Below are positions 5,670-25,218 of a DNA stretch of 43,790 bases, piece by piece. This DNA is from an uncultured virus (IMG/VR IMGVR_UViG_3300037067_013349) (Duplodnaviria > Heunggongvirae > Uroviricota > Caudoviricetes): IMG/VR virus record IMGVR_UViG_3300037067_013349, one strand, 5' to 3'. The notes under the pieces are model-generated. The model saw nothing but the letters and a program-made list of their open reading frames with translations, made no database searches and was not told the origin of the DNA. The position numbers and the translations under genes are program-made. Each line of letters starts with the position of its first letter. Within the stretch, counting starts at the first letter, position 1.

Positions 5670-8600
5670 CTATTCTTCGGCTGTCAAAATACCGTCCGTG
5701 AACGTTAATTTTCTCGTCGGTGATCCACCACTGGTATCTGAAACGTAATACACTTTCGTTCCAGCTAATCCTGATGGTACAGGACCAGTAGCACCAGAGG
5801 CACCAGCAATACCTGAGGCACCATCTATACCGGTTGCTCCTGATGCACCGTCTATGCCAGTGGCACCTGTAGCTCCAGTTTCACCTTGAGGCCCAGAAGC
5901 TCCGCCCGGATCACCTTGGGGGCCGGTTGCTCCTGATGCACCATCTATGCCAGTGGCACCCGTTAATCCAATGTCACCCTGAGGACCCGTTGATCCTGTA
6001 GCACCAGTAGCCCCCGTTAAACCAACAGGACCAGTCGAGCCAGTCGCACCAATGGCTCCCGTTTCGCCCTGAGGACCCGTTGATCCTGTAGCTCCCGTTT
6101 CACCCTGCGGACCAGAAGCCCCTCCAGGATCTCCCTGCGGGCCAGTAGCACCTGAGGCACCATCTATGCCCGTGGCTCCCGTTTCGCCCTGAGGACCCGT
6201 TGAACCTGTGGCTCCAGTTTCACCTTGAGGACCAGAAGCACCACCAGGATCGCCTTGGGGACCGGTAGCCCCTGTGGCACCCAGATCTCCTGTAGCTCCT
6301 TGAGGGCCAGTAGAGCCAGTGGCTCCTGTTTCACCCTGCGGACCAGAAGCACCACCAGGATCACCTTGGGGACCGGTAGCCCCTGTGGCACCGACTGAAC
6401 CCGGATCTCCTGTGGCTCCCGTGTCGCCCTGAGGACCGGTCGCACCGTCTATGCCAGTAGCACCTGTGGCTCCAGCTTCACCCTGTGGTCCGGAAGCCCC
6501 TCCGGGATCGCCTTGAGGTCCGGTGGCACCAGAAGCACCACTAGCGCCATCAATACCAGTAGCTCCTATTTCTCCTTGCGGACCGGTAGATCCTTGGACA
6601 CCGGTAGCACCAGAGGCACCGCTAGCTCCGTACGGACCCATTAAGCCTGTAGCGCCTGTTAAACCGATATCACCCTGCGGACCGGTAGCACCAGTAGCTC
6701 CCGTTTCACCTTGTGGTCCGGAAGCCCCTCCGGGATCGCCTTGAGGTCCGGTAGCGCCAGAAGCACCAGGATCTCCGGTGGCTCCGGTTTCGCCTTGAAC
6801 TCCACTGGCACCGTCTATGCCGCTTGCTCCTTGGACTCCACTAGCTCCATCGATACCGCTTGCACCGATATCACCCGTAGTTCCTGTTTCACCCTGAGGA
6901 CCCGTTGAGCCTGTGGCTCCCGTTTCACCCTGCGGACCAGAAGCCCCTCCAGGATCTCCCTGCGGGCCAGTAGCACCTGAGGCACCGGAAGCTCCCTGCG
7001 GACCGCTTGCACCAGTTGCGCCTGTCGCTCCTGTTTCACCCTGCGGACCAGAAGCCCCTCCAGGATCTCCCTGCGGGCCAGTAGCACCAGTTGCTCCTGT
7101 TTCACCTTGAGGGCCTGAGGCACCACCAGTATCACCTTGTGGGCCTGTAGCGCCTGAAGCCCCATCTATACCAGTTGCGCCTGCGTCACCTTGAGATCCT
7201 GTCGCACCGGTTTCACCTTGTACTCCTGATGCGCCTGCTTCTCCGGTTATACCGCTAGCTCCTTGAGTACCGGTAGCACCTGAAGCGCCTGAGGCACCAT
7301 CAATACCAGTGGCACCTGCTTCTCCTTGAGGGCCAGAAGCACCGCCAGTGGGACCTTGCGGTCCTGTAGATCCGGTTGCGCCAATATCACCGGTGTCGCC
7401 AGTGTGGCCAGTAGCCCCGGAAGCACCTGGAAAACCAGTATAACCTTGTTCTCCCTGTGGGCCAGTAGCACCTGAGGCACCACTGGCACCATCGATGCCG
7501 GTGGCTCCTGTTAGTCCAATGTCGCCTTGTACACCAGTAGCACCTGAAGCTCCTGAAGCACCAGTCAGACCAGCACCAGTCGCACCAGTGAGGCCAGTAA
7601 AACCTGTAGCACCAGAAGCACCAGAATATCCGGTATATCCACTAGCGCCTTGAGCGCCTGAAGCTCCTATACCAGAAGCTCCCTGGGTACCCGTAGCACC
7701 TGAAGCACCTGAAGCACCATCGATACCAGTGGCACCAGTAAGACCTGTTTCACCTTGTGGGCCTGTAGCACCTGAAGCCCCGCTAGCTCCATCGATACCA
7801 GTAGCACCCGTGTCTCCGACACCTGAGGCACCTTGGACACCCGTAGCACCTGAGGCACCTGAAGCGCCATCGATACCAGTGGCACCTGAAGGGCCAACAA
7901 GACCGGTAGCACCAGTAGCTCCCGTTAAACCAACAGGACCAGTCGAGCCAGTCGCACCTACGGGGCCACCAAATGGACCAGAAGCTCCCGTTAGACCAGT
8001 TGCTCCGACAGGACCAGTTGCGCCGGTAGCACCAGCTCCCTGAGGACCAGTACTACCGGTTGCACCTGCATCGCCATCAGCACCAGTTGCGCCGGTTGCA
8101 CCTGCATCGCCATCAGCACCAGAGGCTCCAGCATTTCCTTGAGAACCGGTTGCACCTGCGTCACCAGCAGCACCAGTCGAACCAGTTGCACCAGTAGGGC
8201 CACCAGAAGGACCAGTAGCGCCAGTCGGGCCAGTGATACTAACGCCAGTGGCCCCTGTTGCACCTTTGGAACCAGTAGCACCAGTTGATCCAGCGATACC
8301 GGTTGCTCCTGCTGGACCAGAGGCACCACCAGTTGGGCCTTGTATACCAGTAGCTCCGGTCAAGCCGGTAGCTCCAGCTACTCCAGTCGCCCCGTCACGA
8401 CCGATGCCTGTAGCACCAGTTGCACCAGCTACACCAGTTGAGCCACCTACACCAGTTGAGCCTGTTGAACCAGCAGGGCCGGAAGCTCCACCAGTAGGGC
8501 CGGTTGCTCCCGGCTGCCCGGCAGGACCAGAAGCACCATCAAGACCAACACCAGAGGCACCAACAGGACCACCAGGGCCGGTTGAACCTGTCGCCCCCGT

Positions 8601-11600
8601 TGGACCACCGCCAGGACCAGTAGCACCGGCGGCACCATCAGCACCAGTTGAGCCAGTCGCCCCAAGTCCGCTAGCACCCTGCGGGCCAGTTGAACCGGTA
8701 GCTCCGATTGGGCCACCAGCAGGGCCAGTTGCGCCAGTGAGTCCAATACCAGTAGCACCAGTAGCACCAGTCGGGCCACCAGAAGGGCCGGTAGCACCAG
8801 GAGTGCCAGTTGCACCTGTCGCTCCAATACCAGTAGCTCCAGTTGCACCAGGCAAACTGATTCCAGTCGAGCCGGTTGCTCCTGATGGACCAGACGCACC
8901 ACCAGTAGGACCGGTTGCTCCTATCGGACCCGTCGAGCCCGTGGCACCAGCTCCTGTCGCGCCGATAGGTCCGATTGGTCCCAGCGACCCTTGCGGCCCT
9001 GTCGAGCCAGTCGCCCCTGTCGGACCGCCGCTGGGGCCGGTAGCTCCAGCCGCACCGGTTGCTCCAGAAGCACCAATGATACCAGTTGAAGACCAAGATA
9101 GATTACGATAACCGTCTGTGACTAATACCTGACCGGCTGAGCCGTCGATATTTGGGAATCGCATGTTGCTAATAACAACATTCTTCCCGGTGCCCCATGC
9201 TGAGAGTTGTAAATCCTCCCCAGACACTGAATGGATGACCGATATTTGTAGGCCGCCTGCGTCATCGTATTGTAGCCCAGCACTATCAATTAAACGGCCG
9301 TGAGTACCAGCAAATGGTATCCTATTTGGTGTGAGCCGCGTCCCATCGTTCAGAATAAAGCCTTTACGAGCACCATTAGTTGTGATTGTAAAGTACAGAT
9401 CATCTTGTATGAATTCAACTGCACCAGCTTCTGGTACTGCTAGAACGTCACCAGACTCCATTTTCACCGGTGCATTACCTGGTGCAGCTTTACCAGCTTG
9501 AATATGCAATCTTGCAGTTGGATTATGTATGCCAATACCTGTTTGCTGCCCAGTGACCACAACCGTTTCATCCGCTCTCATTCGCTCCAGTGGATGATAG
9601 AAGTTGGTCAAACGAGTCGCGTTATATTCGGGAACACCAGCGTTATTGTCAAGAGTGACAGTCCCTAACCAGCGATATCCCTTATAGTTGCCACTGGCAA
9701 CGAAGACCGGGACGCCATCTAAGGTTGCAAGACCGTCTGAATCAACTTGTATCCAGTATCCCGCTGCCAAATCGTCCGCGAACACACCAGACGTATGACT
9801 AACGACGCAAGCATACGTGTAGGAATAGAGAACTCTTTGGCCTATTGAATATGATGTCGCGGTAGCCCAATCTTCAATACGGCTCTCAGAAACAGGAGTA
9901 TATTCAACATACTTCAATTCGCCAATAGTAGCAAACCATAGTTGATCTGCACCATCTATCTCCTGCATCGGATATGTGCACGCAGTCACATCAATGCGAT
10001 AAAATCGATATTCTATCGCATTATCGAAAGTGAAATAATCAGACCATATATCAACGCCAGATGGCGGGTCGACATCGGTTCTTGTGTCCAAGACCGACCA
10101 ATTGACATTATCATTCGAGCCAGAAAATGTCCATGTCCTTGGCAGTGATGGATAATAAAGCTTGGCTTTAAATGCGTATTTGTTGATAGCCTTCTTCACA
10201 TATGGACCAAAGTCATATGTGATCCACATAGGCGTTTGGAAAGGATCGCCTGGCGTGTAGCCAGTGCCACCAATTTGAACACCCCATCCCGGATTTCCAG
10301 GCGTGTCTTCTTGGTTGAAAGCGTACCAACCGTACAGATATGTGCCACCGACCTGGACACCAGTTGAACTGGTAATGACCATGTTTGGCGTGGGATCGAC
10401 AAACGACGTCATTACCGCTGTACATGTAGTCGTTCCAGTATTGTATATGCCATCAGACGGTACAAACTTCCAGGGTGCGAACTGAATGTCAAAAGACGTG
10501 GCGTTTACAAATGATGCGAAGACATCATATGTTCTATTGGCAATTAATGGATTTGCACCCATATCATTGACAATATTCGAAACTGTTGGGGCAGTAGCAA
10601 TATTGACGACATCCCAAACACTATTGGTGTCATCATATAACCTAATCAAACTTGATTCTACGAAATTCCAACTTAAAATGGTGGAGCTAGTTATTTTAAG
10701 ATTGCCGCCAACTATGTCGCTGTCAGCAGCGTCTCCGCCATTATCAACCCATGACAAATTACCATAGCCGTCTGTTTGTAGGACTTGGGTTGGAAGGCCG
10801 TTATCTCTTGGAAGATCAAGCGCACCTAATATAATATTACCAATCGTTCCTGCCGCGATTGAGATGTCGCCTGTGTCTTTCTTCCTCTCAACAATGTTGT
10901 AAAAATTGCCTATCAATGAGTTATTGAAATAAGGTGTACCAGCTATATCATATAACGACAATATCCCAAGCCATCTGTATCCTTTGAAATCTCCAGAATT
11001 GGCATAGACAGGAACACCATCAAAAACGCCTAGCCCACATGCTTCAACCAAAATCCACAAACCGCTTGCTAAATCTGTAGCAAAATCACCTGAAGTATGA
11101 GCAGAGAGGCATGCATAGACGCTATCGTGAATAACTCTATCGCCAACATTATAAGCTGTACCAGTTTCCCAATAGCTGGCTCTTGAATTAGCTGGAACAC
11201 CGCGTACGAGCTTAATCTCATTTAGCTCAACATACATCGCCCCATAACCAGCGTCTGCGGGGCAATTGGTGATGAGCTTATAATAGCGATAAGCTATTCC
11301 ATTAGAAAATGTATAATAAGCACTCCATGTTTGATCACCTGGGCCACTTATGCCGGTTCTCGAATCCAACAGAACGTAATCGACGCCGTTCTTTGAGCCG
11401 TAGAGGGAGAATTCGGTTGGAAACGCTCCATTGTCGTTTGCCCGTAAAGCATATTTATTAACAATGGTTGGAATGTTGAAGTCGTATTGTATCCAAGCTG
11501 AGGTAGCTAGCGGAATTGGTGTTGATGACCAGCAACGAGCCACATCGTCACTAAAAGCGTTCCAAGCATCATATAGTTCACTACTTGCACTACTGACCTG

Positions 11601-12926
11601 TGGTGCTGGCGTAGCATCAGATGTCATTGTCGTGGTGCATGTTGTAGTTCCAGGATTGTTAGCACCATCAACAGACACAACTTTCCATGGGGCGAAATCG
11701 ATATCAAACGCAGTCAGCGTACCATTATAGACGGCGAACACATCATAAACCAAATCTGACTCTAATGCATTACCACCTAAATCATTGGAAAGGTTAGAGG
11801 CAACAGGTTCAGTCGCTATATCGAGCAGCTCCCAAGCAAGCACGTCAGTATTATAGAGACGAATGTGACTTGAGGAATAGAAGCTCCAGCTTAGAACATC
11901 GCCAGCAGAAGCTTCTAATCGACCACCAACAGTATCACTGCTCTCGCCACCAGGCACAATCATGCTATTAACATAACGAACTGTCGCTACGTCATCTGCT
12001 ACTGATGGGGTCGGTGTGTGATTGTTGAGGAACTCGTTATCCGTCCCAAGATCGACCGCTGGAATGCGGAATGTATTATGATTAATGACGTTGTTGTCTG
12101 AACCAGAATCCAAGGTGAATGATGATCCGACAGCCCGCTCTACCAATGCGTTGTTCTCGATAGTATTGGAACTTGCACTTACGAGCTTTACAGCGTCCAA
12201 ATTGTCATCGATTTTGTTATAGTGCAGGACGTTGCTGTCTGAATTCTGAACATAAAAGCCAATAGTATTCGACTTAGATGTGCTCTCAGTGATTGAGTTA
12301 TTGTCAGAATAGACGATAGAAAAGCCCGTATTGACGTTAGAATCACTAATATTTTCTTCACCGTGGTTTCCGGTGGAGTTGAAAATACCGATACCATCGG
12401 CATTGTTTAAGGTTGTGTTATTCGAAATTGTGTTATCGTTCGAAGAATTCTTGAGTACGATGCCGTATTCGCGGTTGCCGTCACAAGTGTTATTAGTTAT
12501 GACGTTATTTCCGCTTCCAGTTAATTCGATACCGTTCTTATTCCCTGTGCACACGCACAAATCAATAGTAAAGACGTCTTCTGGAGATGAGTTATCAAGG
12601 AGAATACCAGCTTGGTTGTCTGTAGATGCTGTCACTGTGAATAACTTAAACATGCCGGACACAGCAGTAATCCGGACAGTCGGTGCAGACGTCCCATCTC
12701 CTCTAATAATCGTTGTTCGTGGATCGTCAGTATAAATATTGAGGATCTTGTTGATTGTTAGATTCTCGGTATATGTCCCCGGCCTGACGTAAATAACGTC
12801 TTTCTCAATAGCAGCATTAATAGCCGCCTGGATAGTAGTGTATTCATCATAGTCAGTAGAACCGACGCTGATGGTGTAATCAGCAGTTGCTTTAGTGACT
12901 ATTCTGTCGGTATTTCTTAACGTCAT
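5670..12926 (-). CDS. Collagen-like tail fibre / virion surface protein with a right-handed beta-helix, two discoidin(F5/8)-like plus CBM5/12-like modules, and about 1100 aa of G-X-Y repeats
   Basis: [22 protein letters not shown] followed by GI.L..S.NN.I.NN repeats; WIQYDF..NKY..P....GS....W..LD.R..YRYY twice; W.TGTAY.VG.RV..YAC..HTSG twice; GAT/GAS/GPQ repeats. Confidence 0.85.
5775..9075 (-). repeat. Collagen G-X-Y coding repeat region
   Basis: Recurring [23 protein letters not shown] units; GC-rich periodic DNA. Confidence 0.9.
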
Positions 12927-15409: not shown

Positions 15410-15711
15410 GCCTTAGCACCATCACAATAACGCGGCAGTGCCCAGTCATTGATTATTTTGTCGTTCTACCGAACAACATCGAATCGAAGGCTACTGCTGT
15501 GCCCGTTGCTGGCTTTGTAGCGGCCACAGGCGGCGTTGTGAATAGGCTGTCTCAGGCGAGCAATCAAGGCAGACATGGCTATCGATTCGGCACTCAAGAA
15601 TGGGTTGAGTTATCCGAAGCTATTGGCGGTTCAAATGCAGCGTTGGAAGCTGGTAAGACCCTGTATGGCACTAACGTGCGAACCGACAAGCCTAAGCCAT
15701 GGGAAAGCTAG
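15406..15711 (+). CDS. Hypothetical protein
   Basis: Coupled ORF, convergent with kdsB. Confidence 0.65.
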   Translation: MSLSTITITRQCPVIDYFVVLPNNIESKATAVPVAGFVAATGGVVNRLSQASNQGRHGYRFGTQEWVELSEAIGGSNAALEAGKTLYGTNVRTDKPKPWES

Positions 15712-16478
15712 AACGGGCGATTCATTCTAATAACGAACGCCATATAATCTTCTTTAGTATCGATACCATAAGTGGGTTCGTTGGCGATTCCTACTAAGAT
15801 TTTATGACCAAAATAGAGTGCCCGTAGTTGTTCAAGACTCTCCATAGTCTCCATCTGGCATGGAGGATGTTGGACGAGTTTTAATAAGAAATCTCGCCTA
15901 TAAGCATATACACCCACGTGCCGATAAAAAATGGTTCGCAGGAATTGACTGTTATCGGGTTCTGTGCCACCGTCTAATATGCCAGGATATGGAACAGGAC
16001 CTCGGCTGAAATACAACGCCCTGTTCTCATGATCCAGAACAACCTTCACACAAGATCGGTTGCAAAGCTGCGACAGTGAGCGAATCGGAGAAGCAATTGT
16101 ACTCATCACTTCTGCTGGATTCTCTTTGAGTAGCTTGACGGCCAAATCGATCAATGAACCCTTTATCTCAGGTTCATCAGCTTGCACATCGACGATGATA
16201 TCAGCGTCGGCGTGATCTGCAATTTTACTAGTAGCTAATGCTACTCTTTCCGTGCCATTCTCTGCCGCACCGGTCATCACGACGTCTCCGCCGAATGACT
16301 CTACTTCCTTACGAATAGCCTCGTCATCAGTCGCAACGCACATACCTGTCGAATATATAGATTGCATCGCTGACTGATAGGTATGGTGCAGAACAGATTT
16401 GCCGGTATTACGCAACAGAAGTTTACCGGGCAAACGAGACGAGCCCATACGAGCAGGAATGATAATTTTACACTTCAA
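15708..16478 (-). CDS. kdsB: 3-deoxy-manno-octulosonate cytidylyltransferase (CMP-Kdo synthetase)
   Basis: IIPARMGSSRLPGKLL, VATDD, GTERVA, VQADEP, VKVV..ALYFSR, HVGVYAYR, ESLEQLRAL, GIDTKED motifs. Confidence 0.93.
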   Translation of the reverse strand: MKCKIIIPARMGSSRLPGKLLLRNTGKSVLHHTYQSAMQSIYSTGMCVATDDEAIRKEVESFGGDVVMTGAAENGTERVALATSKIADHADADIIVDVQADEPEIKGSLIDLAVKLLKENPAEVMSTIASPIRSLSQLCNRSCVKVVLDHENRALYFSRGPVPYPGILDGGTEPDNSQFLRTIFYRHVGVYAYRRDFLLKLVQHPPCQMETMESLEQLRALYFGHKILVGIANEPTYGIDTKEDYMAFVIRMNRPF

Positions 16479-16491
16479 GGGCTGGATACTC

Positions 16492-17982
16492 CCTGTAGTC
16501 CTGTAATTGCTTGGGAACGAACACTGTTCTCCCTTTTATGTGGAGTAGTTCCGCGTCGACCTGTAGCCCTGTAATCCTAACGCTATTCTCATTATCACTT
16601 CAACATTTCAGAAAAATCCTGCAGCCCTATCGATCCGGCCATCTTCACTGTTTGCGCCTGTAGTCCTGTAATTGCCTAGTAGTTACCTCCATTGCGAAGA
16701 GGCTTTGTGACGTTAATCACGACCTGTAGTCCTAACGCTATTCTCCATTTTACCGAGAACGAAATGGCCCTTTCCCTGTAGTCCTAATGCTTCATTCGGC
16801 ACCCTACTTCACCTGTAGTCCTAACGCTATTTTCATTAATCGTATCAAAGTCGTAATCGAGCGACCTGTAGTCCTGTAACGCTATTCTCCATTGCGATCA
16901 ATCGCTACACGCGGCGGCAAACCTGTAGTCCGCAGGGTAGCCACTACGAACAGATGGACCTGTAATCCTGGAAACGAACGCTCTATTTGGGAGCCTGTAG
17001 TCCTAACGCTATACCAGAAGTATGGCGACCTGTAGTCCTGTAGTTACCTGGGAACGAACGTTATTCTCCATTGCTTCTCCGAAGCACCTTCGGAATGTGG
17101 AACCTGTAGTTACCTGGGAACGAACGCTATTCTCCATTGACGGTCGCTTCAAGCAATATATGGGACTCCTGTAGTCCTGTAATCCTGGGAACGAACGCTA
17201 TTCTCCATTTGGGAAGGCGATACTCAACAGCATTCTGCACCTGTAGTTACCTGGAACGAACGCTATTCTCCATTCACTTCGGTTGAAGTCTGGTCCACCG
17301 CTGACCTGTAGTTACCTGGGAACGAACGCTATTCTCCATTAAAACCGAGCATACCATCTCCCCTGTAGCTGCTAAGCAAATACGCCATGGGAGCCTGTAG
17401 TCCTGTAGTTCTAATGCTGTTCTCCATTCATAAACACAAACCGCATAAATCGGAGTGTCCTGTAATCCTGTTTTGAGCCTGCCGTATCAGATTCCTGTGA
17501 CCCTGTAGTCCTTCTCCATTTTACTCGGTCAGATAGGCTCCATGTGACTTACCTGTAGTCCTGTAATTCAAGCGGGCCAAGAATACATCCTGTAGTTACC
17601 TGAGAACGAACGCTACTCCATTTTTCAGAAGAGATACATCATCCTGTAGTCCTGTAGTTTACCTGGGAACGAACGCTATTCCATTTGCCGCAAATTCGAC
17701 AGGCTATACGATCTCCTGTAGTCCTGTAGTTACCTTGGGAACAAACGTTATGCTCCATTAAACTGGGAACGAACGCTATTCTCCATTAGTTGCTCGACTC
17801 GCTGTTCGGTCTGCGCCCTGCAGTTACCTGGGAACGAACGCTATTCTCCATTTGGCGCGTCCGTGATCTATATGCCTGTAGTCCTGTAATCCTGGGAACG
17901 AACGCTATTCTCCATTGCTTTGGCTAGTGAAGTCTTCTAGCTTGGTCCTGTAGTTACCTGAGAACGAACGCTATTCTCCATT
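16492..17982 (-). CRISPR. CRISPR-like array 1: about 27 degenerate repeats; full repeat 36 nt (+ strand CCTGTAGTTACCTGGGAACGAACGCTATTCTCCATT); spacers mostly 27-31 nt
   Basis: Perfect 36-mers at 17103 and 17305; variants beginning CCTGTAGTCCTGT or CCTGTAGTCCTAA; unique spacers between them. Confidence 0.9.
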
Positions 17983-17989
17983 TCGCTAT

Positions 17990-18547
17990 TTAGGTTGTTT
18001 CCGGCATCTTGTCTTTCTGCACGGCCTCGGTAGCAATAGCATATTGCAGCCTGACATAGCTCGAAGCCAATATCAGAAGCGTGTTGAGATTGACGGTGAT
18101 TTTCTCCTTGGGACATTCCAGGTGCACCAGTATCTCATCATTGACCTTTCGGCCTTTTATCTCAACCGCTCCAACTTCGTTGTTCAAAATCTTGCCGTTG
18201 ATCCAAGCGGTGACGCCGTGACCGCTTGGATCGGCCCAATCGTCCGACAGACCGGCAGCCGCCATGAAAGCCAAAAGGCTTTTGCCCTCTGGCGATCGTG
18301 CTAAGCTAGAAGACATTCCAGAAGGTTTAGGGAACTTTACTGGAAGCCTCACCACTATTTCGCGCTCCACAGGAGTTTCGTCGTCTCCGAATTTGACTAT
18401 CCATACTTCCGTGGGCGGATCAGAGGTATGGCAGAGTCGAACCAGCGATATGAGTTGAGCCTTACCTTCGAGTTCCCGATACTCGCTGAGAGACCGCTGC
18501 TTTTTGTAAATGGAGCACAAATCTCCACGCTTCAAAACTGACTTCAC
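17990..18547 (-). CDS. Hypothetical protein between the arrays
   Basis: 185-aa ORF, GGGGAG Shine-Dalgarno, stop 7 nt before array 1. Confidence 0.75.
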   Translation of the reverse strand: MKSVLKRGDLCSIYKKQRSLSEYRELEGKAQLISLVRLCHTSDPPTEVWIVKFGDDETPVEREIVVRLPVKFPKPSGMSSSLARSPEGKSLLAFMAAAGLSDDWADPSGHGVTAWINGKILNNEVGAVEIKGRKVNDEILVHLECPKEKITVNLNTLLILASSYVRLQYAIATEAVQKDKMPETT

Positions 18548-18618
18548 ATTACTACTCCCCTTGAGCCATTGAAAATCATCATTGATGTCCGTATCTTTTT
18601 ATAGCTCGACGAATAGGG

Positions 18619-19140
18619 TCAATTAGCTTCGAGTTCAATTATCTTAGCTTGAAGCTCGGCAATTTGCGCCCGAAGAGCCTCGTTCTCCGCTTCCAGTGTC
18701 TTGATGCGGGCTAAAAGCTGGTCCTGGACTGCCTGCATCGACGCCTTGACCTTGCGGGCTTCCTTATATGGGTCGGCTGGCTTGGCCCGGCGACGACGTG
18801 GCGGAACGTCGGATTTCGTCTTGGCGAGCATACCGTTGTACATGTCGCGAAGCTTGCCATCCTTCCATTGATATTCTTCCGGATAATGATTGAGCATCAT
18901 CCGTAATTCGGAGAAGGTCAAGCAAAGGTCGCTGACATATTCATCCAGGATGGCCAGAAGCTTGTTGTTGTCCAGGATCTCGTTGTCGGCCCGAAAGTCT
19001 GGGTCTTCATAGACACTGTTCAATAGAGTTGCCCGCCGATAGGCATTATGGCCACTCGACTGCTGCAGCTTCCGGACTTGCTGTAAGAGCTTCTTGTACT
19101 GCCTTTTGCAGCGTGGCTGGGTTGGTGCGGTCGACCTCAT
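18619..19140 (-). CDS. Hypothetical protein with C-terminal coiled coil
   Basis: AAGGAGG upstream; LLARIKTLEAENEALRAQIAELQAKI heptads. Confidence 0.75.
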   Translation of the reverse strand: MRSTAPTQPRCKRQYKKLLQQVRKLQQSSGHNAYRRATLLNSVYEDPDFRADNEILDNNKLLAILDEYVSDLCLTFSELRMMLNHYPEEYQWKDGKLRDMYNGMLAKTKSDVPPRRRRAKPADPYKEARKVKASMQAVQDQLLARIKTLEAENEALRAQIAELQAKIIELEAN

Positions 19141-19252
19141 CGATAGTCCTCCTTAGTCTTTTATGGAAAGCTGATAGTTGTGCACATTGGCGACAGCAAA
19201 ACTTCTTGTTGCCGTTCAATGGTGTCTTACATACTGGACATAAACCTGTCAT
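19046..19252 (-). CDS. Small zinc-ribbon protein (CPVC...KFCCRQC)
   Basis: CxxC plus FCxxxC motif; overlaps the next ORF. Confidence 0.45.
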   Translation of the reverse strand: MTGLCPVCKTPLNGNKKFCCRQCAQLSAFHKRLRRTIDEVDRTNPATLQKAVQEALTASPEAAAVEWP

Positions 19253-19295
19253 TGTGCGTATTAGAGAACCTGTAGTTATCGCGTTACGGGCTTCG

Positions 19296-19691
19296 TTACT
19301 GTAATCCTGCTTCTGCGTTTTGTTCCTCGACAGGCATATCGACCTCTATCAACTCCTTGACGCCAAGCTGAGAGGTCGTTACTCTTATCGCATTGTTGAC
19401 GATATCCCAAATCTTTACTTCGCGTTCAACTATCCCTTGGCAGTTGCAGTGTACTAAACCGCTCATTCTTACAGATACACAGCAACCGGTTGGGTTGTCC
19501 AGATGTACCTTGAATTGTCGGCGCTCATAATCCTGCCAAGCCCAAATTCGCTTGCCGCAAATCTCGCAGCGCGTTATAGCTGGATAACCGTGCCAATTTG
19601 GATCAAACCAAAGTAAAGCTGCCTTGCCGATAACTATCCCAACAAGAATGCATACTGCAAGTATCAAAAACTTAATCACGTAAATTCTCAT
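19296..19691 (-). CDS. Hypothetical membrane-anchored Cys-containing protein bounded by repeat cores
   Basis: N-terminal TM helix, CEICG; repeat-like core at 19709 upstream and at its own 3' end. Confidence 0.6.
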   Translation of the reverse strand: MRIYVIKFLILAVCILVGIVIGKAALLWFDPNWHGYPAITRCEICGKRIWAWQDYERRQFKVHLDNPTGCCVSVRMSGLVHCNCQGIVEREVKIWDIVNNAIRVTTSQLGVKELIEVDMPVEEQNAEAGLQ

Positions 19692-19720
19692 ATGCGCCGT
19701 TCGGAGCCCCCGCAGTCCTG

Positions 19721-19900
19721 TTATGTTGTCTGCAAGAAGTCTCTCATTTCGATCAATTCATCAACACTTCTGAATGACATTTGGTAGCCATCCTTTTCTA
19801 GTATGAGAATCAATCCTTGCAGCATAAGCTTGAGTCGTCGAAAATTTTCCACATTGTTTAAAAATACGAGAAGTTCGTGACGCCACGAGTTTGGCACCAT
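19721..19900 (-). CDS. 59-aa ORF exactly filling the space between two repeat units
   Basis: Hand-translated MVPNSWRHELLVFLNNVENFRRLKLMLQGLILILEKDGYQMSFRSVDELIEMRDFLQTT*; ATG abuts repeat 19901, TAA overlaps core 19709-19721. Confidence 0.55.
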   Translation of the reverse strand: MVPNSWRHELLVFLNNVENFRRLKLMLQGLILILEKDGYQMSFRSVDELIEMRDFLQTT

Positions 19901-20581
19901 CCTGCAGTCCTGTAGTTACCAAACACTGGATTTCCAAACGAGATTTATTAAACCTGTAGTCCTGTAGTCTAATGCTATACTCCATTGTATCGCTATGTCG
20001 CTACTTTGCGAAGAGCCTGTAGTCCTGTAGTTACCGAACGCTATTCTCCATTTTCACGTTCCACTCGATCTTGTTGAAACTCCTGTAGTCCTGTAATCAT
20101 AACGCTATCCCAAAATGTCAGGAGGGCGTCATTAGTCCTGTAGTCCTGTAGTTACCTGGAAACGAAATTTCACCACAAAACCGAATTTTCAAAGAACTCC
20201 TGTAGTCCTGTAGTCCTAACGCTATTCTCCATTACCGTAATTTATGGGGTACCTGTAGTCCTGTAGTCCTAATGCTATTCTCCATTCATACATTCATGTA
20301 TTTTGGCGGCAATGCTCCTGTAGTTACCTGGGAACGAATGCTATTCTCCATTTGAGCAAGATCGAGCTGTGCACCGGCATTTCCTGTAGTTACCTGGGAA
20401 CGAACGCTATTCTCCATTTGTCAACAACGCTGGTATACTCCGATTCCTGTAGTCCTAATGCTATTCTCCATTTGAGAAGTGGAACGGCCTGTGCTTCAAT
20501 GCCTGTAGTCCTGTCCTATAGTCCTAACCTGTTCTCCAGAGGTTCTTACCACCTGTAGTCCTGTAGTCCTAACGCTATTTT
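19901..20581 (-). CRISPR. CRISPR-like array 2: about 12 repeats of the same family
   Basis: Repeat starts at 19901, 19953, 20016, 20082, 20137, 20199, 20252, 20317, 20383 (perfect 36-mer), 20446, 20502, 20552; spacers mostly 27-32 nt. Confidence 0.9.
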
Positions 20582-20743
20582 TCACCATTTTTTACTGCAA
20601 AGAGCCAAAGCAATGTATGTCACTCCTATGAGAATCTGCAACCCCCAAAAGGTCCAAATTCTGATGACACCCATTACCAATAAAATGGCAAACGCTACAT
20701 TCGATATTCCAGACAGCATATCGACAATTTTTCTTCTGGTCAT
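20582..20743 (-). CDS. 53-aa two-TM membrane protein between repeat units
   Basis: Hand-translated MTRRKIVDMLSGISNVAFAILLVMGVIRIWTFWGLQILIGVTYIALALCSKKW*; degenerate repeat catgtagtaccttgaaacgctatt immediately upstream. Confidence 0.55.
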   Translation of the reverse strand: MTRRKIVDMLSGISNVAFAILLVMGVIRIWTFWGLQILIGVTYIALALCSKKW

Positions 20744-20847
20744 AATCCATGTAGTACCTTGAAACGCTATTAGGTGGTTCCCATCGCCTAACTATTGTCT
20801 TCCTCTTCCCTCAAGTGTTGTTACTCATGATTCAAGAGCAAGTGCTA

Positions 20848-21399
20848 CCTGTAGTCCTGTTATACTTCTTCTGGCAGCCTGAAAATATTAACCCACCTGC
20901 CATGGATTTTTGTTTTGCGCTTCACCAATTCGCCCGGTGTTCTAGCCAATGCTGCCATCACGCGGTCTGATGTTTTTGTGCATTCATGTGGCCACCCCAG
21001 CCGCTCGGCTATCAAATGTAACAACCCCTCGTCACCAAACATGACGGCTGGATTGTCCGTTTCTCTCAGCACTTCAACAGCAGCATCACATGCTCGCATG
21101 TTTGAACCATCTAATCTTAGCGGCCTGCAGTCCTGTTATTCAATCAATCAACGTGAAAAAGGGCGGACGACCTGTAGTCCTGTTATTTGCCATGTGTCGT
21201 CTGACTCACTTCACATGTATAATATATAAAATTCAGCTTGTGCTTGTCCTGCAGTCCTTAATACCGTGTCCCAAAAGGCGGTGTCCATTGATGGAAAAGG
21301 ATATAAATGCAAACTATTTCTGCCGCGAACGTCAAATTAAATGATACAAGCGATAGTAACGTTGAATGCCAATAAGTGGCGGGACAAGTCCTGTAGTCC
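20848..21399 (-). repeat. Dispersed minimal repeat cores CCTG(T/C)AGTCC(TGT) at 20848, 21124, 21171, 21248, 21390
   Basis: 10-13-nt matches to the conserved end of the array repeat, same orientation. Confidence 0.75.
20860..21099 (-). CDS. Hypothetical protein flanked by repeat cores
   Basis: 79 aa; stop overlaps CCTGTAGTCCTGT (20848-20860); core at 21124 upstream. Confidence 0.65.
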   Translation of the reverse strand: MRACDAAVEVLRETDNPAVMFGDEGLLHLIAERLGWPHECTKTSDRVMAALARTPGELVKRKTKIHGRWVNIFRLPEEV

Positions 21400-21407
21400 G
21401 TATCCGT

Positions 21408-21436
21408 ATTATATACTACTATAAAGTGGCTGTCAA
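21408..21436 (-). promoter_or_regulatory. Perfect sigma70 consensus promoter (TTGACA-17 bp-TATAAT) pointing into the repeat region
   Basis: + strand tgtcaa at 21431-21436 and attata at 21408-21413, 17-nt spacing; predicted start about 21401, just before the first core. Confidence 0.85.
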
Positions 21437-21452
21437 GTCTACAGCACTTTGT

Positions 21453-22598
21453 TCATTGCCTAACCGTAACGTCGATATCAACCTTGTTACAAGATCGTTG
21501 AATCAACGACTGCATTTGTTGCCAGTCCCATCGAGTCGTCTCGGTGTCACCAATACGTCCAGCATATGACAAATAGTAATCGGTGGGCGGGGCGAAAATG
21601 ACAAGATGACCGATGCCGTTTGTCACTAACAATCTCGTCACGTCATTGGCGAGATGAGTGCTCCAGGTCTTGATGAAATCACGCCAACGCCGCTCATATT
21701 TCGCTTTGTCGGCGGTCGAGCCCTGCTTCCTAGTCTTCTTGCTCTCCTGAATGTCCAAGGTGTTTCGTGTGTGCTCGACATCTTCGCCACGGCGAAGACG
21801 GAATATGGTTCTGCCATTGAACCGAAAAGAAAATGGCCGGTGTTGTGCTGCCAATAGGAATGCAGTCTTGTTCTTGTTAAGCGGCAGTCTCACCTTCGGA
21901 ATTGAATGACAGAGATAAGCTTGCCATCGACCGTCGCGTTCCTTCAAATCGACGCCCTTCAACTCCCATTCGCCAGCCGTAATTTTCCACAACGCATCGC
22001 GGACAGAATGTAACCGGTAGCTCTTGGTCTTGATGACGAAAACCATCGGACCGTAGCCGTCAACATCGACCTCAAGCTTCCAGTCTTCATCCTTGGTTTG
22101 TGGGACGATGATCCGACAATCTCGTTTGTGCAGCGGAATATTGCTGCGTTTGGACGATTGCGAAAGACCACCACAGCCAGCGAGAACGGTTATCCAGCGT
22201 GGATAAGCTGATCTGTATCCACGGTGGTGTAACAAATCCTTAACCGCCTTATGCACCGCCAACTTACCCTCTCTGCCCATTAATGGGTGCTCGGCTGCAA
22301 TGATTTCGTCAAGCTGCTGAGCGATTTCGTCGCTGTAGGGGTCGACTGGGCATCGAATGCGAGGACCGACTCTGCTTTCCGGCTCATAGAGCCATCGTTT
22401 GTCCTGTTCGAGCCATTCACGAACCAATAGGTGGTTATTGGCGTCAAAATGAAGCTGTAGCCAAGCCGACATGAAATCGTTGACAATTTGTTGAATGTCG
22501 GTGGCCAGTGAGAGCAAATGCTTTTTGTGCGACTTGAAGCTGTCGTCACTACCGATCAAATCAACCCGTTTGTTCTTGATGACTCGGAAATCTCCCAT
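21453..22598 (-). CDS. cas12f: Cas12f/TnpB-family protein B, predicted nuclease-dead and C-terminally truncated
   Basis: LWKITAGEWELKGVDL..DGRWQAYLCH WED signature; RuvC-I position reads TAFLLAA, RuvC-II position HLVIFAP; WDWQQMQSLIQ..DIDV ends the protein; clear paralog of 22825..24240. Confidence 0.75.
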   Translation of the reverse strand: MGDFRVIKNKRVDLIGSDDSFKSHKKHLLSLATDIQQIVNDFMSAWLQLHFDANNHLLVREWLEQDKRWLYEPESRVGPRIRCPVDPYSDEIAQQLDEIIAAEHPLMGREGKLAVHKAVKDLLHHRGYRSAYPRWITVLAGCGGLSQSSKRSNIPLHKRDCRIIVPQTKDEDWKLEVDVDGYGPMVFVIKTKSYRLHSVRDALWKITAGEWELKGVDLKERDGRWQAYLCHSIPKVRLPLNKNKTAFLLAAQHRPFSFRFNGRTIFRLRRGEDVEHTRNTLDIQESKKTRKQGSTADKAKYERRWRDFIKTWSTHLANDVTRLLVTNGIGHLVIFAPPTDYYLSYAGRIGDTETTRWDWQQMQSLIQRSCNKVDIDVTVRQ

Positions 22599-22611
22599 AT
22601 TGTCTCCATAA

Positions 22612-22687
22612 AGGTAACTCTGGCGAGGGCTAACACGGTACGGAATGCCCGCAGCTATTCTCGCCTTCGAGACGTACAGGACGCCTC
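22612..22687 (-). ncRNA. tracrRNA-like RNA copy 1 (3' tail AGUUACCU)
   Basis: 76-nt repeat; 5' hairpin GAGGCGU-CCUGU-ACGUCUC; GGCGAG/CUCGCC stem; tail complementary to repeat AGGUAACU. Confidence 0.75.
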
Positions 22688-22705
22688 TATTTGTGATTTA
22701 TAAAA

Positions 22706-22781
22706 ACAGGACTCTGGCGAGGGCTGACACGGTACGGAATGCCCGCAGCTATTCTCGCCTTCGAGACGTACAGGACGCCTC
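22706..22781 (-). ncRNA. tracrRNA-like RNA copy 2 (3' tail AGUCCUGU followed by a U-run)
   Basis: Near-identical 76-nt copy; tail complementary to repeat ACAGGACU. Confidence 0.75.
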
Positions 22782-22824
22782 CGGTTGTGATTCTGGATAT
22801 TAGTAGCGTGAAAGTAACTATTAA

Positions 22825-24240
22825 TTAACTATCCCGATTTTCGGATTTAATCTGCAGTCCCGGTTCGTCGTCTTCCTTCTTCCGCGACTTGCCTCCTTGC
22901 TTAATGACCACATTTATACCAGCAGCCTTACCAACTTGCTCCAACTGGCGTTGCATATGGTACCAGTCCCATGCCGTCGATTCGCTACGGCCTATCTTAC
23001 CAACATGGGACAAATAGCGGCTATCACGCCATTTCCCGGTCGGTTGATAAGTCACGAGACGCCCAATGCCGAATTTGACACAGGTACTGATGACTTCTGC
23101 GGCCCAATTGTTGTTGAAGGTTTTGGTCCGATTGCGCCAATTGCGTTCCGATTTCTTTCGCCAGTCATGAACCTTACGGCCATGATTCTTACGAGCACTG
23201 GAAGCATACTTGTAGCTTTCGTTCTTACCAAATCGTTGAAGCGTCAAAGAACGACGAGCCCGTTTAATATGCTTGCAACTTCGCATTCGCATTTGCGTCT
23301 TGCCGTTGATGCGGAACAGAACAGCACCATATCGACCGGCTGATACGATAGCCGTTTTGGTGCTGCTGAACGATGCCGTGACGCCAGGAATCAGGTAGCA
23401 TATATCAGCGTACCACTTTCCTTCGAACTGGACGAGTTGGGAAGTGTTGAGAATATAATCGCCAGATGCAATTTTCCACAACACGCGACGAATTGGCGAC
23501 AACTTACGCCCACCGGTGGTGAGCCTAAACGTCATCGGACGTAGGAACCTTTTACCCTCAATCTTTTCATAGCGAACGGTCAGCTTCCATGGCTCATCAT
23601 TGCTACGGGGCACAACAAGATTGCTGTTGCTTGTATAGAATGGAACAGGTAGAGGCTTAGACGATTGTGGGTATTCTCCAAGCCCTGTTAAAATCCTAAA
23701 CCATCGTTTGTATTTGGATTTCGTCGCTGGTGCTTTGATAAGCGTCTTGCTAAGCCGATTGGTTACAATGCCAATCGGCTTAGTTCCAAGATTGGCATGC
23801 TGGGTGGTCAGCAGGCCATAGATCTGAATCCCCATTTCGTTGGTGTATGGCTGCACAGGGCATTTGATACGTGGCGGTATATCAACCTTAGGTTGATCTG
23901 ACGCCTTCTTTTTGCCGTTCTTGCCCTTCTTGCCATTTTTCTCGGCTTTTTGAGCCGCTGCCAGCTTGGCGTATTTCCGTGCCCACTCTTTGTCCTCCTC
24001 AATCCATTTGCGAAGGGCGGTTGGCGATCCAGCCTGTCGGTGCAATCGGAACCATTGACTATAAAAGTCGTTGGTAATTTGCTGCATCTGGCATGATAAC
24101 ATCACCAGACGTCTTTTCTCCTCGGCAAAATCGCCGTCACAGCCGCTCAATTCGACCCGAATGACTTTGGTGAGTCCATCAGGCTTCTTTTTACGCGGCT
24201 TCTTCGGGTCGTCTTTCACGGTCGTCTTCTTCTTACTCAT
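22825..24240 (-). CDS. cas12f: Cas12f/TnpB-family protein A, predicted nuclease-dead and C-terminally truncated
   Basis: TKVIRVEL N-terminal strand; KIASGDYILNTSQL..GKWYADICY; bridge region KYASSARKNHGR...RNRTKTFNNNWAAEVI..GIG; WDWYHMQRQLEQVGKAAGINV; GIDLG site reads IVSAG, EDL site reads YQP; no CxxC finger or RuvC-III. Confidence 0.8.
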   Translation of the reverse strand: MSKKKTTVKDDPKKPRKKKPDGLTKVIRVELSGCDGDFAEEKRRLVMLSCQMQQITNDFYSQWFRLHRQAGSPTALRKWIEEDKEWARKYAKLAAAQKAEKNGKKGKNGKKKASDQPKVDIPPRIKCPVQPYTNEMGIQIYGLLTTQHANLGTKPIGIVTNRLSKTLIKAPATKSKYKRWFRILTGLGEYPQSSKPLPVPFYTSNSNLVVPRSNDEPWKLTVRYEKIEGKRFLRPMTFRLTTGGRKLSPIRRVLWKIASGDYILNTSQLVQFEGKWYADICYLIPGVTASFSSTKTAIVSAGRYGAVLFRINGKTQMRMRSCKHIKRARRSLTLQRFGKNESYKYASSARKNHGRKVHDWRKKSERNWRNRTKTFNNNWAAEVISTCVKFGIGRLVTYQPTGKWRDSRYLSHVGKIGRSESTAWDWYHMQRQLEQVGKAAGINVVIKQGGKSRKKEDDEPGLQIKSENRDS

Positions 24241-24260
24241 TTAACATTCCCTATTGAAAA

Positions 24261-24336
24261 ACAGGACTCTGGCGAGGGCTAACACGGTACGGAGTGCCCG
24301 CAGCTATTCTCGCCTTCGAGACGTACAGGACGCCTC
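24261..24336 (-). ncRNA. tracrRNA-like RNA copy 3 (3' tail AGUCCUGU followed by a U-run)
   Basis: Third 76-nt copy directly upstream of effector A. Confidence 0.75.
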
Positions 24337-24507
24337 CGGTTTTCATGTAGGTTTATAGCTCCCTGCTGATGGTTGATTAACTTAAATCACCTGCGAGCTA
24401 CTTCTGTTATAGCCTCAGTGAAGCTATTAATTAACTGACTGAGCACATATTTCTCTGGGTTAAATCGTAGCAACCGTCGTGCTATAAGTACTATAGGGAG
24501 CCAAAAA

Positions 24508-25218
24508 ATGCGAATGAACAAACGGTACATCTACCCGCCACGTCCAAAAGACGCAATCCCTTTCAATCAGATTGGGATGTATAATCAGTACGGGTGGAAA
24601 GCCCAAACGAAATTCAATGATAAACGCACCGAAATAGCAATTGATGCGAATTCGGTCGAGATATTTAACCGCCACAAAGGACAACACAAGACATTTATGT
24701 TGTCCGACTCTTTACGAGATGAAATCGTCGCTGTTTGTCGCGATATTTTTGGGTTGGATGTGTCGCAGTGGTCATACCTCGATGGAGGGTTGCTTGATGG
24801 AAAGAGCAAACACATTGAAGGAATAGTGGTCATATGGGATATTCTGGTTCGCGAAGGCGATTGGCTCGTTGGCAGCACTTACCAAGAGCGATATGGATGG
24901 CTATTAGCAAAAGCAGAGGCCGCTGGTGGAGAGCCATTCATCGTCATCATAAACGGCCAAGAGTTTGACTTCGGCATCAGGCTCAGCGAGCACATCTTTA
25001 TGCCGCGATTCTGGGAGGATTTTGAATCTTGCTGGCAATTCACACAGAGAGTCAATAAAGCTGCCGGGTGGAGCATGGAGAATGGCGGTGAGCCTGTATT
25101 AGAAGGGATTGTGATGAAGGACCCTCAAGGAGTCTTAAAACCGGATAACGGGAAAGAAAAGAACAACACCGAATGGTCGGCCAGAAGCAGAATCAGAACC
25201 GGACGGCATCATTTTTAG
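24508..25218 (+). CDS. ATP-dependent ligase-like nucleotidyltransferase (adenylation domain only)
   Basis: QTKFNDKR (motif I-like), YLDGGL, IWDIL, EGIVMKDP; no OB domain apparent. Confidence 0.7.
   Translation: MRMNKRYIYPPRPKDAIPFNQIGMYNQYGWKAQTKFNDKRTEIAIDANSVEIFNRHKGQHKTFMLSDSLRDEIVAVCRDIFGLDVSQWSYLDGGLLDGKSKHIEGIVVIWDILVREGDWLVGSTYQERYGWLLAKAEAAGGEPFIVIINGQEFDFGIRLSEHIFMPRFWEDFESCWQFTQRVNKAAGWSMENGGEPVLEGIVMKDPQGVLKPDNGKEKNNTEWSARSRIRTGRHHF

Follow-up and report, generated by a model that had tools for sequence, protein, structure and literature searches.

A predicted nuclease-dead twin Cas12f-like system with tracr-like RNAs and guide arrays in phage DNA

To our knowledge, natural nuclease-dead Cas12f proteins have so far been characterised only as partners of sigma factors, in Bacteroidota, and the array-linked and phage-borne forms have been mentioned in print but not studied. 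The present analysis concerns a locus that appears to be both array-linked and phage-borne: a stretch of 43,790 nucleotides from an uncultured virus of the Caudoviricetes (IMG/VR record IMGVR_UViG_3300037067_013349; this whole stretch is called the window below) carries two neighbouring genes, for effectors A and B, whose products are predicted to be Cas12f-like proteins without a nuclease site, together with short RNAs resembling trans-activating CRISPR (short palindromic repeats that are clustered and regularly interspaced) RNAs, or tracrRNAs, and with arrays of candidate guide units. The system is most likely a phage-borne derivative of type V-F (Cas12f) CRISPR that has lost its nuclease, and we consider it probable (at roughly 0.7) that complexes of the dead proteins, guided by tracrRNA and CRISPR RNA (crRNA), bind DNA without cutting it and thereby silence non-self DNA, be it that of rival mobile elements or host genes.

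Two published systems are close to it (for these and the other papers cited, our statements refer to the portions of their text available to us). Al-Shayeb et al. (Nature 2020; PMC7162821) read a Cas14 of huge phages, 'dCas14', as a repressor, with a spacer to the host glycyl-tRNA synthetase gene. As in the window, an array but no Cas1 or Cas2 accompanies a Cas14/Cas12f effector that is without a catalytic residue; dCas14, however, is a single protein in which one residue is missing, whereas the window has two effector genes from a duplication, their products have lost the entire triad, and the spacers gave no target. Hoffmann, Wiegand et al. (Nature 2026; PMC13472631) describe a cluster of C-terminally truncated dCas12f proteins beside CRISPR arrays, for which repression is proposed; there too, part of the RuvC site is missing through the truncation, the arrays adjoin, and a structured guide RNA, recognised by covariation, lies upstream. 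The example given, however, comes from the metagenome-assembled genome of a bacterium (Chitinophagaceae), where the guide is directed at an efflux promoter, and the available description of the cluster does not include the twin paralogs, companion gene and phage context seen here. Since dCas14 and array-linked dCas12f are already published, the kind of system is known in outline, and it is the form with twin proteins and two RNA tails that we did not find in print.

Other published systems share features with it as well. The sigmaE-linked dCas12f proteins (PMC13472631) are likewise Cas12f derivatives with a dead nuclease and a truncated C terminus, and they bind DNA via a guide, as is predicted here, but they come with an operonic rpoE, whereas Pfam recognised no sigma-factor domain, and no cas1, cas2, cas4 or transposase domain either, among the 37 window open reading frames (ORFs) scanned, in agreement with a preliminary description of the sequence. 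They also use a single chimeric guide and, in the text available, no tracrRNA, as opposed to the separate tracr genes and arrays found here, with one fused copy in a relative. TldR proteins (PMC10705468), some of which are phage-borne, are dead, truncated RuvC proteins that act as RNA-guided DNA binders (again a prediction here), but they derive from TnpB and use a single guide of the omega-RNA type, whereas the window has a Cas12f-type tracr with multi-spacer arrays and its effector A matches Cas12f above TnpB. Cas12m (type V-M; PMC10442227, PMC11013384) interferes by binding double-stranded DNA uncut, as is predicted here, but belongs to a different Cas12 lineage and keeps a RuvC-like site. 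A landfill virome study (PMC12607003) reports viral elements that encode 2-3 type V-like proteins, as well as a clade of 19 members that lack RuvC motifs and whose representative has 474 aa; its available text does not mention a tracrRNA, and none of four peptide motifs of the family described below occurs in the two of its supplements searched as text. Finally, Altae-Tran et al. (PMC10691335) propose a scenario in which dead Cas12f derivatives evolved from Cas12f in three successive stages, from full repeats through half repeats to a single guide in fused form.

The preliminary description had not recognised the combination as a described subtype. This holds in part: phage dCas14, array-linked dCas12f and multi-protein viral elements have been published, but the literature searched, within the portions available, contains no description of a conserved paralog pair, of a companion coiled-coil gene, of two matched tail/repeat classes in one locus or of pairing rules for a 76-nt tracr.

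Twin Cas12f-like proteins and their lost nuclease site

Effectors A and B, which are 32% identical over 421 columns (BLASTP E 5e-76), are paralogs, and neither has a match in Pfam, PHROGs or NCBIfam. Against the sequences of the PDB, A (P0001) matched AsCas12f (E 1.7e-07), and a 19-member family profile matched SpCas12f1 (1.2e-18) and AsCas12f (~1e-17), with a weak match to the sigmaE-linked dCas12f 9n9c (2.1e-05). PADLOC recognised A as Cas12u3 (1.1e-12) and Cas12f (5.9e-11), the match stopping at profile positions 338-341 of 398-399. The structure comparison with Cas12f1 and TnpB that the preliminary description had suggested gave a Cas12f fold: the AlphaFold2 model of A (predicted local distance difference test score, pLDDT, 78.6) found AsCas12f as its top Foldseek match (8j12_A, E 6.6e-18), followed by other Cas12f structures, the further matches being the natural dCas12f structures 9n9m and 9n9c, TnpB (ISDra2 TnpB, 4.2e-06), Cas12k and Cas12m (4.5e-07).

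The nuclease site is lost in both proteins. As judged from the HMMER alignment to AsCas12f, the position of the RuvC-I aspartate is occupied by S300 in A and L249 in B, and that of the RuvC-II glutamate by Y398 and F335, respectively. Aspartate is found in the RuvC-I column in 0/19 family members and in 0/36 of a wider set, and glutamate in the RuvC-II column in 0/19. The alignment to AsCas12f stops at residue 361/422, beyond which A has a 26-residue basic tail and B has nothing; the truncation point of B is that of A. The third catalytic motif, RuvC-III, and the C-terminal zinc ribbon are absent from both, and 19/19 family members end ahead of these elements. The Cas12f fold being present and the catalytic triad and zinc ribbon missing, the term 'nuclease-dead Cas12f-like' fits A and B, and the two dead paralogous effectors proposed earlier are thus recovered: on sequence evidence, both are Cas12f-like proteins without a nuclease site. 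They differ in that B is without the basic N-terminal extension of A and without its YASSARKNHGR segment, which A has in common with AsCas12f.

Five related loci, all on IMG/VR viral contigs (8-364 kb), allowed the origin of the pair to be addressed. A and B are adjacent and in the same order in 4/4 twin loci (the window, L001, L002 and L003), both ORFs being intact in all four and the proteins 52-79% identical between phages, while L004 and L005 have one effector each. In a quick maximum-likelihood tree, the B proteins form one clade (Shimodaira-Hasegawa-like approximate likelihood ratio test, SH-aLRT, 100), the A proteins another (100), and the two are sisters (96), with the single-effector forms outside; this topology points to one duplication within the phage-borne lineage as the origin of the pair.

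The close subfamily counts five loci only in IMG/VR, and a profile scan of 185,579 species genomes gave one 59-residue candidate, which was not confirmed by tblastn with 168 family proteins (1e-5). When the family profile was run against 1.84 billion representatives, the number of matching proteins was 643 with a threshold of E<=1e-3, and 199 with E<=1e-30. Among the 150 matches listed, most are of ~400-500 aa and match end to end, with match ranges that fit the same truncation, and in the eight family representatives inspected the RuvC aspartate is missing and the end point is the same. These counts, together with the shared truncation, indicate a large, uncharacterised family of dead Cas12f proteins rather than a one-off.

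The tracr-like RNAs and their matching guide units

Three copies of a ~76-nt element lie on the minus strand of the window (starts 24336, 22781 and 22687; mutual identity 98.6-100%), and they correspond to the three tracrRNAs of the preliminary description, with tails complementary to the repeats that covary with them across six loci. Fourteen such copies occur in these six loci and none elsewhere in three large contigs. Their sequence is strongly conserved: the L001-L003 copies are 91-99% identical to the window copy (versus 52-79% for the proteins), and the mean column identity over all fourteen is 90%. In the consensus fold, 2 of the 23 pairs show compensatory changes (the low variation allows no more). 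Its parts are a hairpin of 7 bp whose CCUGU loop is invariant, a second helix enclosed by a long stem (GGCGAG/CUCGCC), and a 3' tail that is single-stranded and usually precedes a U-run. A TAYAAN box is found 15-35 nt upstream of 7/14 copies, and Rfam gave no match at E<=1 over 16000-25000.

It is the 3' tail that ties the RNA to the arrays, being complementary to 7-8 nt of the repeat just ahead of a fixed ACAGG at the spacer border. Tail and repeat segment covary in four versions across the six phage loci: AGTTACC with GGTAACT (window copy 3 and L001), AGTCACC with GGTGACT (L002, L003 and L004), ACTTGCC with GGCAAGT (L005; three positions changed on each side) and AGTCCTGT with ACAGGACT (window copies 1 and 2). 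The window therefore has two tail types, AGUUACC and AGUCCUGU, which fit the repeat classes GGUAACU-ACAGG and ACAGGACU-ACAGG, respectively, and cognate duplexes have 8-11 bp upon cofolding. By its sequence, the 3' tail is what would be expected of a tracrRNA anti-repeat, and a separate tracr plus array, a feature of Cas12f, appears to be present. The pairing, combined with the repeat-then-spacer order of type V systems, also fixes the direction of transcription.

A second contact is conceivable, as the CCUGU loop may form a pseudoknot with ACAGG. The sole variant of the repeat end, GCAGG (5/45 units), would keep this pairing as G-U; as neither side varies otherwise, the pseudoknot is only inferred. 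Two-site docking is known from Cas12f guide structures, and the proposed pseudoknot resembles it. In L002 (11491-11610), one tracr copy continues into TGACTACAGG and a unique 29-nt stretch, and would, on this evidence, be a naturally fused single guide made up of scaffold, half repeat and spacer. We also observed that the tracr stem and the repeat 5' part have GAGAATAGC in common, in the same sense and not in complementary form (e.g. window 22655-22663 and 17328-17336); both may descend from a single omega-RNA-like scaffold, or the similarity may be coincidental.

The repeat motif is confined to one strand and one region: the minus strand has 51 occurrences of ACT[AG]CAGG, always within 16492-21390, and the plus strand has 0, with ~1.3 per strand expected by chance. 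We delimited 45 candidate units in the window, 38 of them with a recognisable tracr-pairing block, so that the 'about 40 guides' of the preliminary description is a fair count. Eight units belong to class I (GGTAACT-ACAGG), 24 to class II (ACAGGACT- or AGGACT-ACAGG), 6 to both and 7 to neither. The repeat 5' part (AATGGAGAATAGCGTT) is kept in 28/45 units; the rest are half repeats, including five solitary units. The clean form of the arrangement is seen in L004, with a tracr, an effector and 13 repeats of 36 nt separated by spacers of 30-31 nt. As claimed earlier, a sigma-70 promoter with a full consensus (12/12) precedes the solitary units; taken together, promoter-like sites show no enrichment in this region (7, versus 10.9 +/- 3.2 in shuffles). 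In the closest relative of the window, G001, an extra small array with the same repeat ends (L031, ~123.6-124.0 kb) lies ~86 kb from the main locus, indicating that guide arrays can be dispersed in such phage genomes.

Set against the V-F1/V-U3 systems (AsCas12f, SpCas12f1, CnCas12f1), the locus has in common the fold and sequence family, a two-part guide with the tracr 3' end on the repeat just ahead of the spacer and, in the clean relative L004, a 36-nt repeat and a ~30-nt spacer; an adaptation module is likewise missing. It differs in the loss of the RuvC acidic residues, zinc ribbon and RuvC-III, in a tracr of only ~76 nt, in two paralogous effectors instead of one, in two matched tail/repeat classes, and in remodelled arrays with half-repeat units. 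Cas12m, for its part, is not known to use a tracrRNA.

Layout of the locus and its phage context

All elements listed in the preliminary description were found where it had placed them, and in the same minus-strand order: tracr, A, tracr, tracr, B, promoter, solitary units, array 2, ORFs, array 1, kdsB (Table 1).

Table 1. Coordinates of the features of the locus and of two flanking genes in the window
Feature	Coordinates	Strand	Remarks
tracr-like RNA copy 1	24256..24336	-	5' of effector A; tail AGTCCTGT then T-run; TATAAA box ~20 nt upstream
Effector A	22825..24240	-	471 aa; Cas12f-like, predicted nuclease-dead
tracr-like RNA copy 2	22701..22781	-	tail AGTCCTGT then T-run
tracr-like RNA copy 3	22610..22687	-	directly 5' of effector B; tail AGTTACC
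Effector B	21453..22598	-	381 aa; paralog of A
Sigma-70 consensus promoter	21408..21436	-	TTGACA-17-TATAAT, 12/12, read 21436->21408; directly past B stop; points into guide region
Five solitary half-repeat guide units	20818..21400	-	repeat ends 21390, 21248, 21171, 21124, 20848; unique sequence after each
79-aa ORF	20860-21099	-	interleaved with solitary guide units
Array 2	19871..20590	-	12 units, repeat classes mixed
Three ORFs between array 2 and array 1		-	131, 173 (o173, next row) and 185 aa
o173, coiled-coil companion gene	18619..19140	-	173 aa
Array 1	16462..17982	-	~27 units; abuts kdsB start codon
kdsB	15708-16478	-	CMP-KDO synthetase; Pfam CTP_transf_3 E 4.3e-46
Collagen-like tail fibre gene	5670-12926	-	2418 aa; PHROG match

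The window is phage DNA as judged from its sequence: PHROG families are matched by the collagen-like tail fibre, by DNA methyltransferases and by an HNH protein. No tRNA genes were found in the window. The kdsB gene adjoining array 1 is itself phage-borne, which points to a Gram-negative host. In the repeat region of the tail fibre gene, the GC content is ~60% over 6-9 kb, versus ~44% elsewhere, and this region gave false 'spacer' matches in motif scans. The 79-aa ORF among the solitary units has 96% identity to its counterpart in G001 and no family match.

Proposed role of the guided complexes and alternatives

If the silencing proposed at the outset is correct, the tracr-like RNA would pair with each repeat end, its CCUGU loop perhaps additionally engaging ACAGG as a pseudoknot; the proteins would load the tracr and the RNAs processed from the arrays; and the loaded proteins would bind matching DNA without cutting it. 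Bound complexes would then block transcription or replication of targets outside their own phage genome, such as competing mobile elements or host genes. The preliminary description had proposed multiplexed DNA binding, for example as CRISPR interference (CRISPRi). The structural part of that reading is borne out (the proteins are Cas12f-like and dead by their residues, with a tracr and guide arrays), and the functional part is, in our opinion, the most likely role.

That the targets would lie outside the phage is suggested by the spacers. We took 122 spacers from five genomes (the window, G001, G002, G003 and G004) and counted 13-mer matches outside the arrays in the window, G001, G002 and G003, the third of these relatives being a complete genome (CheckV 100%, 364 kb). 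The 49 matches obtained, versus 48 for reversed controls, indicate that the guides are not aimed at these phages themselves or at each other. A search of IMG/VR and of metagenome contigs, along the lines recommended in the preliminary description, brought no target: two window spacers taken as 20-mers had 0 matches each in IMG/VR, and one spacer (17102-17073) had 2 exact 20-mer matches in metagenome contigs. Neither lies within an array and both stop at base 20 of the 30-nt spacer, so that they are probably due to chance. One of them (L043:2001-2020) falls within a reading frame encoding FHIPKVLYSWRIH, presumably a glycosyltransferase motif. One spacer had 0 matches in 185,579 species genomes, and the guide region (16480-21450) had no match among GenBank phages (distant mode, E<=1).

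The arrays also seem to change rapidly. No spacer is common to the window and G001, even though their arrays are syntenic and the flanking proteins are 74-97% identical, from which we infer a fast spacer turnover between close relatives. Contigs of public runs (X1 and X2) show array variants (17074-17165 and 20249-20403) between otherwise identical flanks, with 25 different letters in place of 90 nt in array 1 and 153 nt missing in array 2; since contigs can mis-join at repeats, these variants are modest evidence of turnover.

Several observations weigh against silencing by guided complexes, or at least detract from it. First, the repeats of the window are very heterogeneous, with 7/45 units lacking a pairing block and some 'spacers' of 10-16 nt, so that part of the arrays may be decaying or inert. 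Second, the database searches run found no protospacer, and hence neither a target class nor a target-adjacent motif (TAM), and the search for self-targets covered 43.8 kb of a contig reported to be of 167.8 kb. Third, CCUGU and ACAGG are invariant and their pairing accordingly has zero covariation support. Fourth, no RNA runs are listed among the public runs with these loci, and RNA ends, processing and loading are deduced from the DNA. Lastly, that proteins truncated to this extent bind DNA is an assumption made from the analogous TldR and dCas12f.

How the twin proteins would share the work can be pictured in a form that we regard as tentative and, taken as a whole, rather doubtful. A and B would be an obligate heterodimer, subfunctionalised from the asymmetric Cas12f homodimer, with A (basic extension, YASSARKNHGR) on the guide-target duplex and B, which has lost both of these parts, on the tracr scaffold, and with the product of o173 as a third subunit coupling binding to output. 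The two interchangeable tails would let one pair read two repeat dialects, giving a fast-evolving, non-cutting silencing system of ~40 guides against rival elements or host genes. A complex prediction with A (21-451), B and o173, the last as partner, scored 0.00 against a mark of 0.32, a result that weighs neither way.

The companion gene is central to the alternative that survives best, in which the dead effectors would not silence but recruit a partner (the o173 product or a factor of the host, RNA polymerase for example) and start transcription or another activity, in the manner of dCas12f-sigmaE. Homologs of o173 adjoin the system in 6/6 loci (the window and the five related ones), unlike the other two inter-array ORFs, one of which lies ~75 kb away in G003 while the other is without homologs. 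With 25 clusters, the o173 family is small, and it includes members whose longest contig is as long as that of an effector cluster (15910 and 5952 nt). In the protein, a basic linker joins a conserved helical N-terminal domain of ~105 aa to a coiled coil at the C terminus (AlphaFold2 pLDDT 81.7). In the one characterised case described in the available text of PMC13472631, a natural dCas12f does act via a partner. However, searches of Pfam, NCBIfam, the Atlas and the PDB assigned o173 to no family or fold beyond the coiled coil, Pfam recognised no known transcription domain, as it had no sigma factor, among the window ORFs scanned, and the family profile lies far nearer to nuclease-type Cas12f (~1e-17 to 1e-18) than to the sigmaE-linked form (2.1e-05). 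We therefore consider recruitment unlikely.

Regulation of the phage's own promoters by the guides, so as to time gene expression, is improbable. TldR-type regulators do control genes of their own genome (PMC10705468), and a strong promoter stands ahead of the solitary units here, but the 13-mer matches of the spacers from the window and G001-G004 did not exceed those of the reversed controls, even with G003 complete, and a fixed regulatory circuit would not be expected to leave zero spacers conserved between the window and a close relative.

Still a little less probable is a counter-defence decoy, in which dead paralogs and repeat RNAs would disable or titrate out a type V-F system of the host, either in the manner of dominant-negative subunits or as an RNA anti-CRISPR. 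Cas12f works as a dimer, which counts in favour of such a decoy, as does the fact that many repeat units are cut down to the end that would bind protein and tracr; a decoy, however, would need neither a covarying tracr of its own nor long arrays of diverse, turning-over 30-nt spacers. A CRISPR system that was once active and is now a decaying, functionless remnant would account for irregular repeats, variable spacer lengths and the missing adaptation module, but is very improbable given a tracr conserved more strongly than the proteins, ORFs intact in all four twin loci, and a family of 199 clusters at E<=1e-30 with a truncation uniform in the eight representatives read and in the 150 match ranges listed.

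Silencing by RNA-guided, non-cutting complexes thus being the reading we prefer, the locus offers a compact and well-delimited case for studying the use that a phage makes of programmable DNA binding: its proteins have 381-471 aa, its tracr has 76 nt, and its pairing rules are clear and backed by covariation. It also displays side by side the three stages of the scenario set out in the available text of PMC10691335, namely full repeats, half repeats and, in the relative L002, a fused tracr-guide. Should it be true that the paralogs heterodimerise, or that the tracr tails are orthogonal, the system would be of interest both for the evolution of CRISPR and as a source of small programmable DNA binders.

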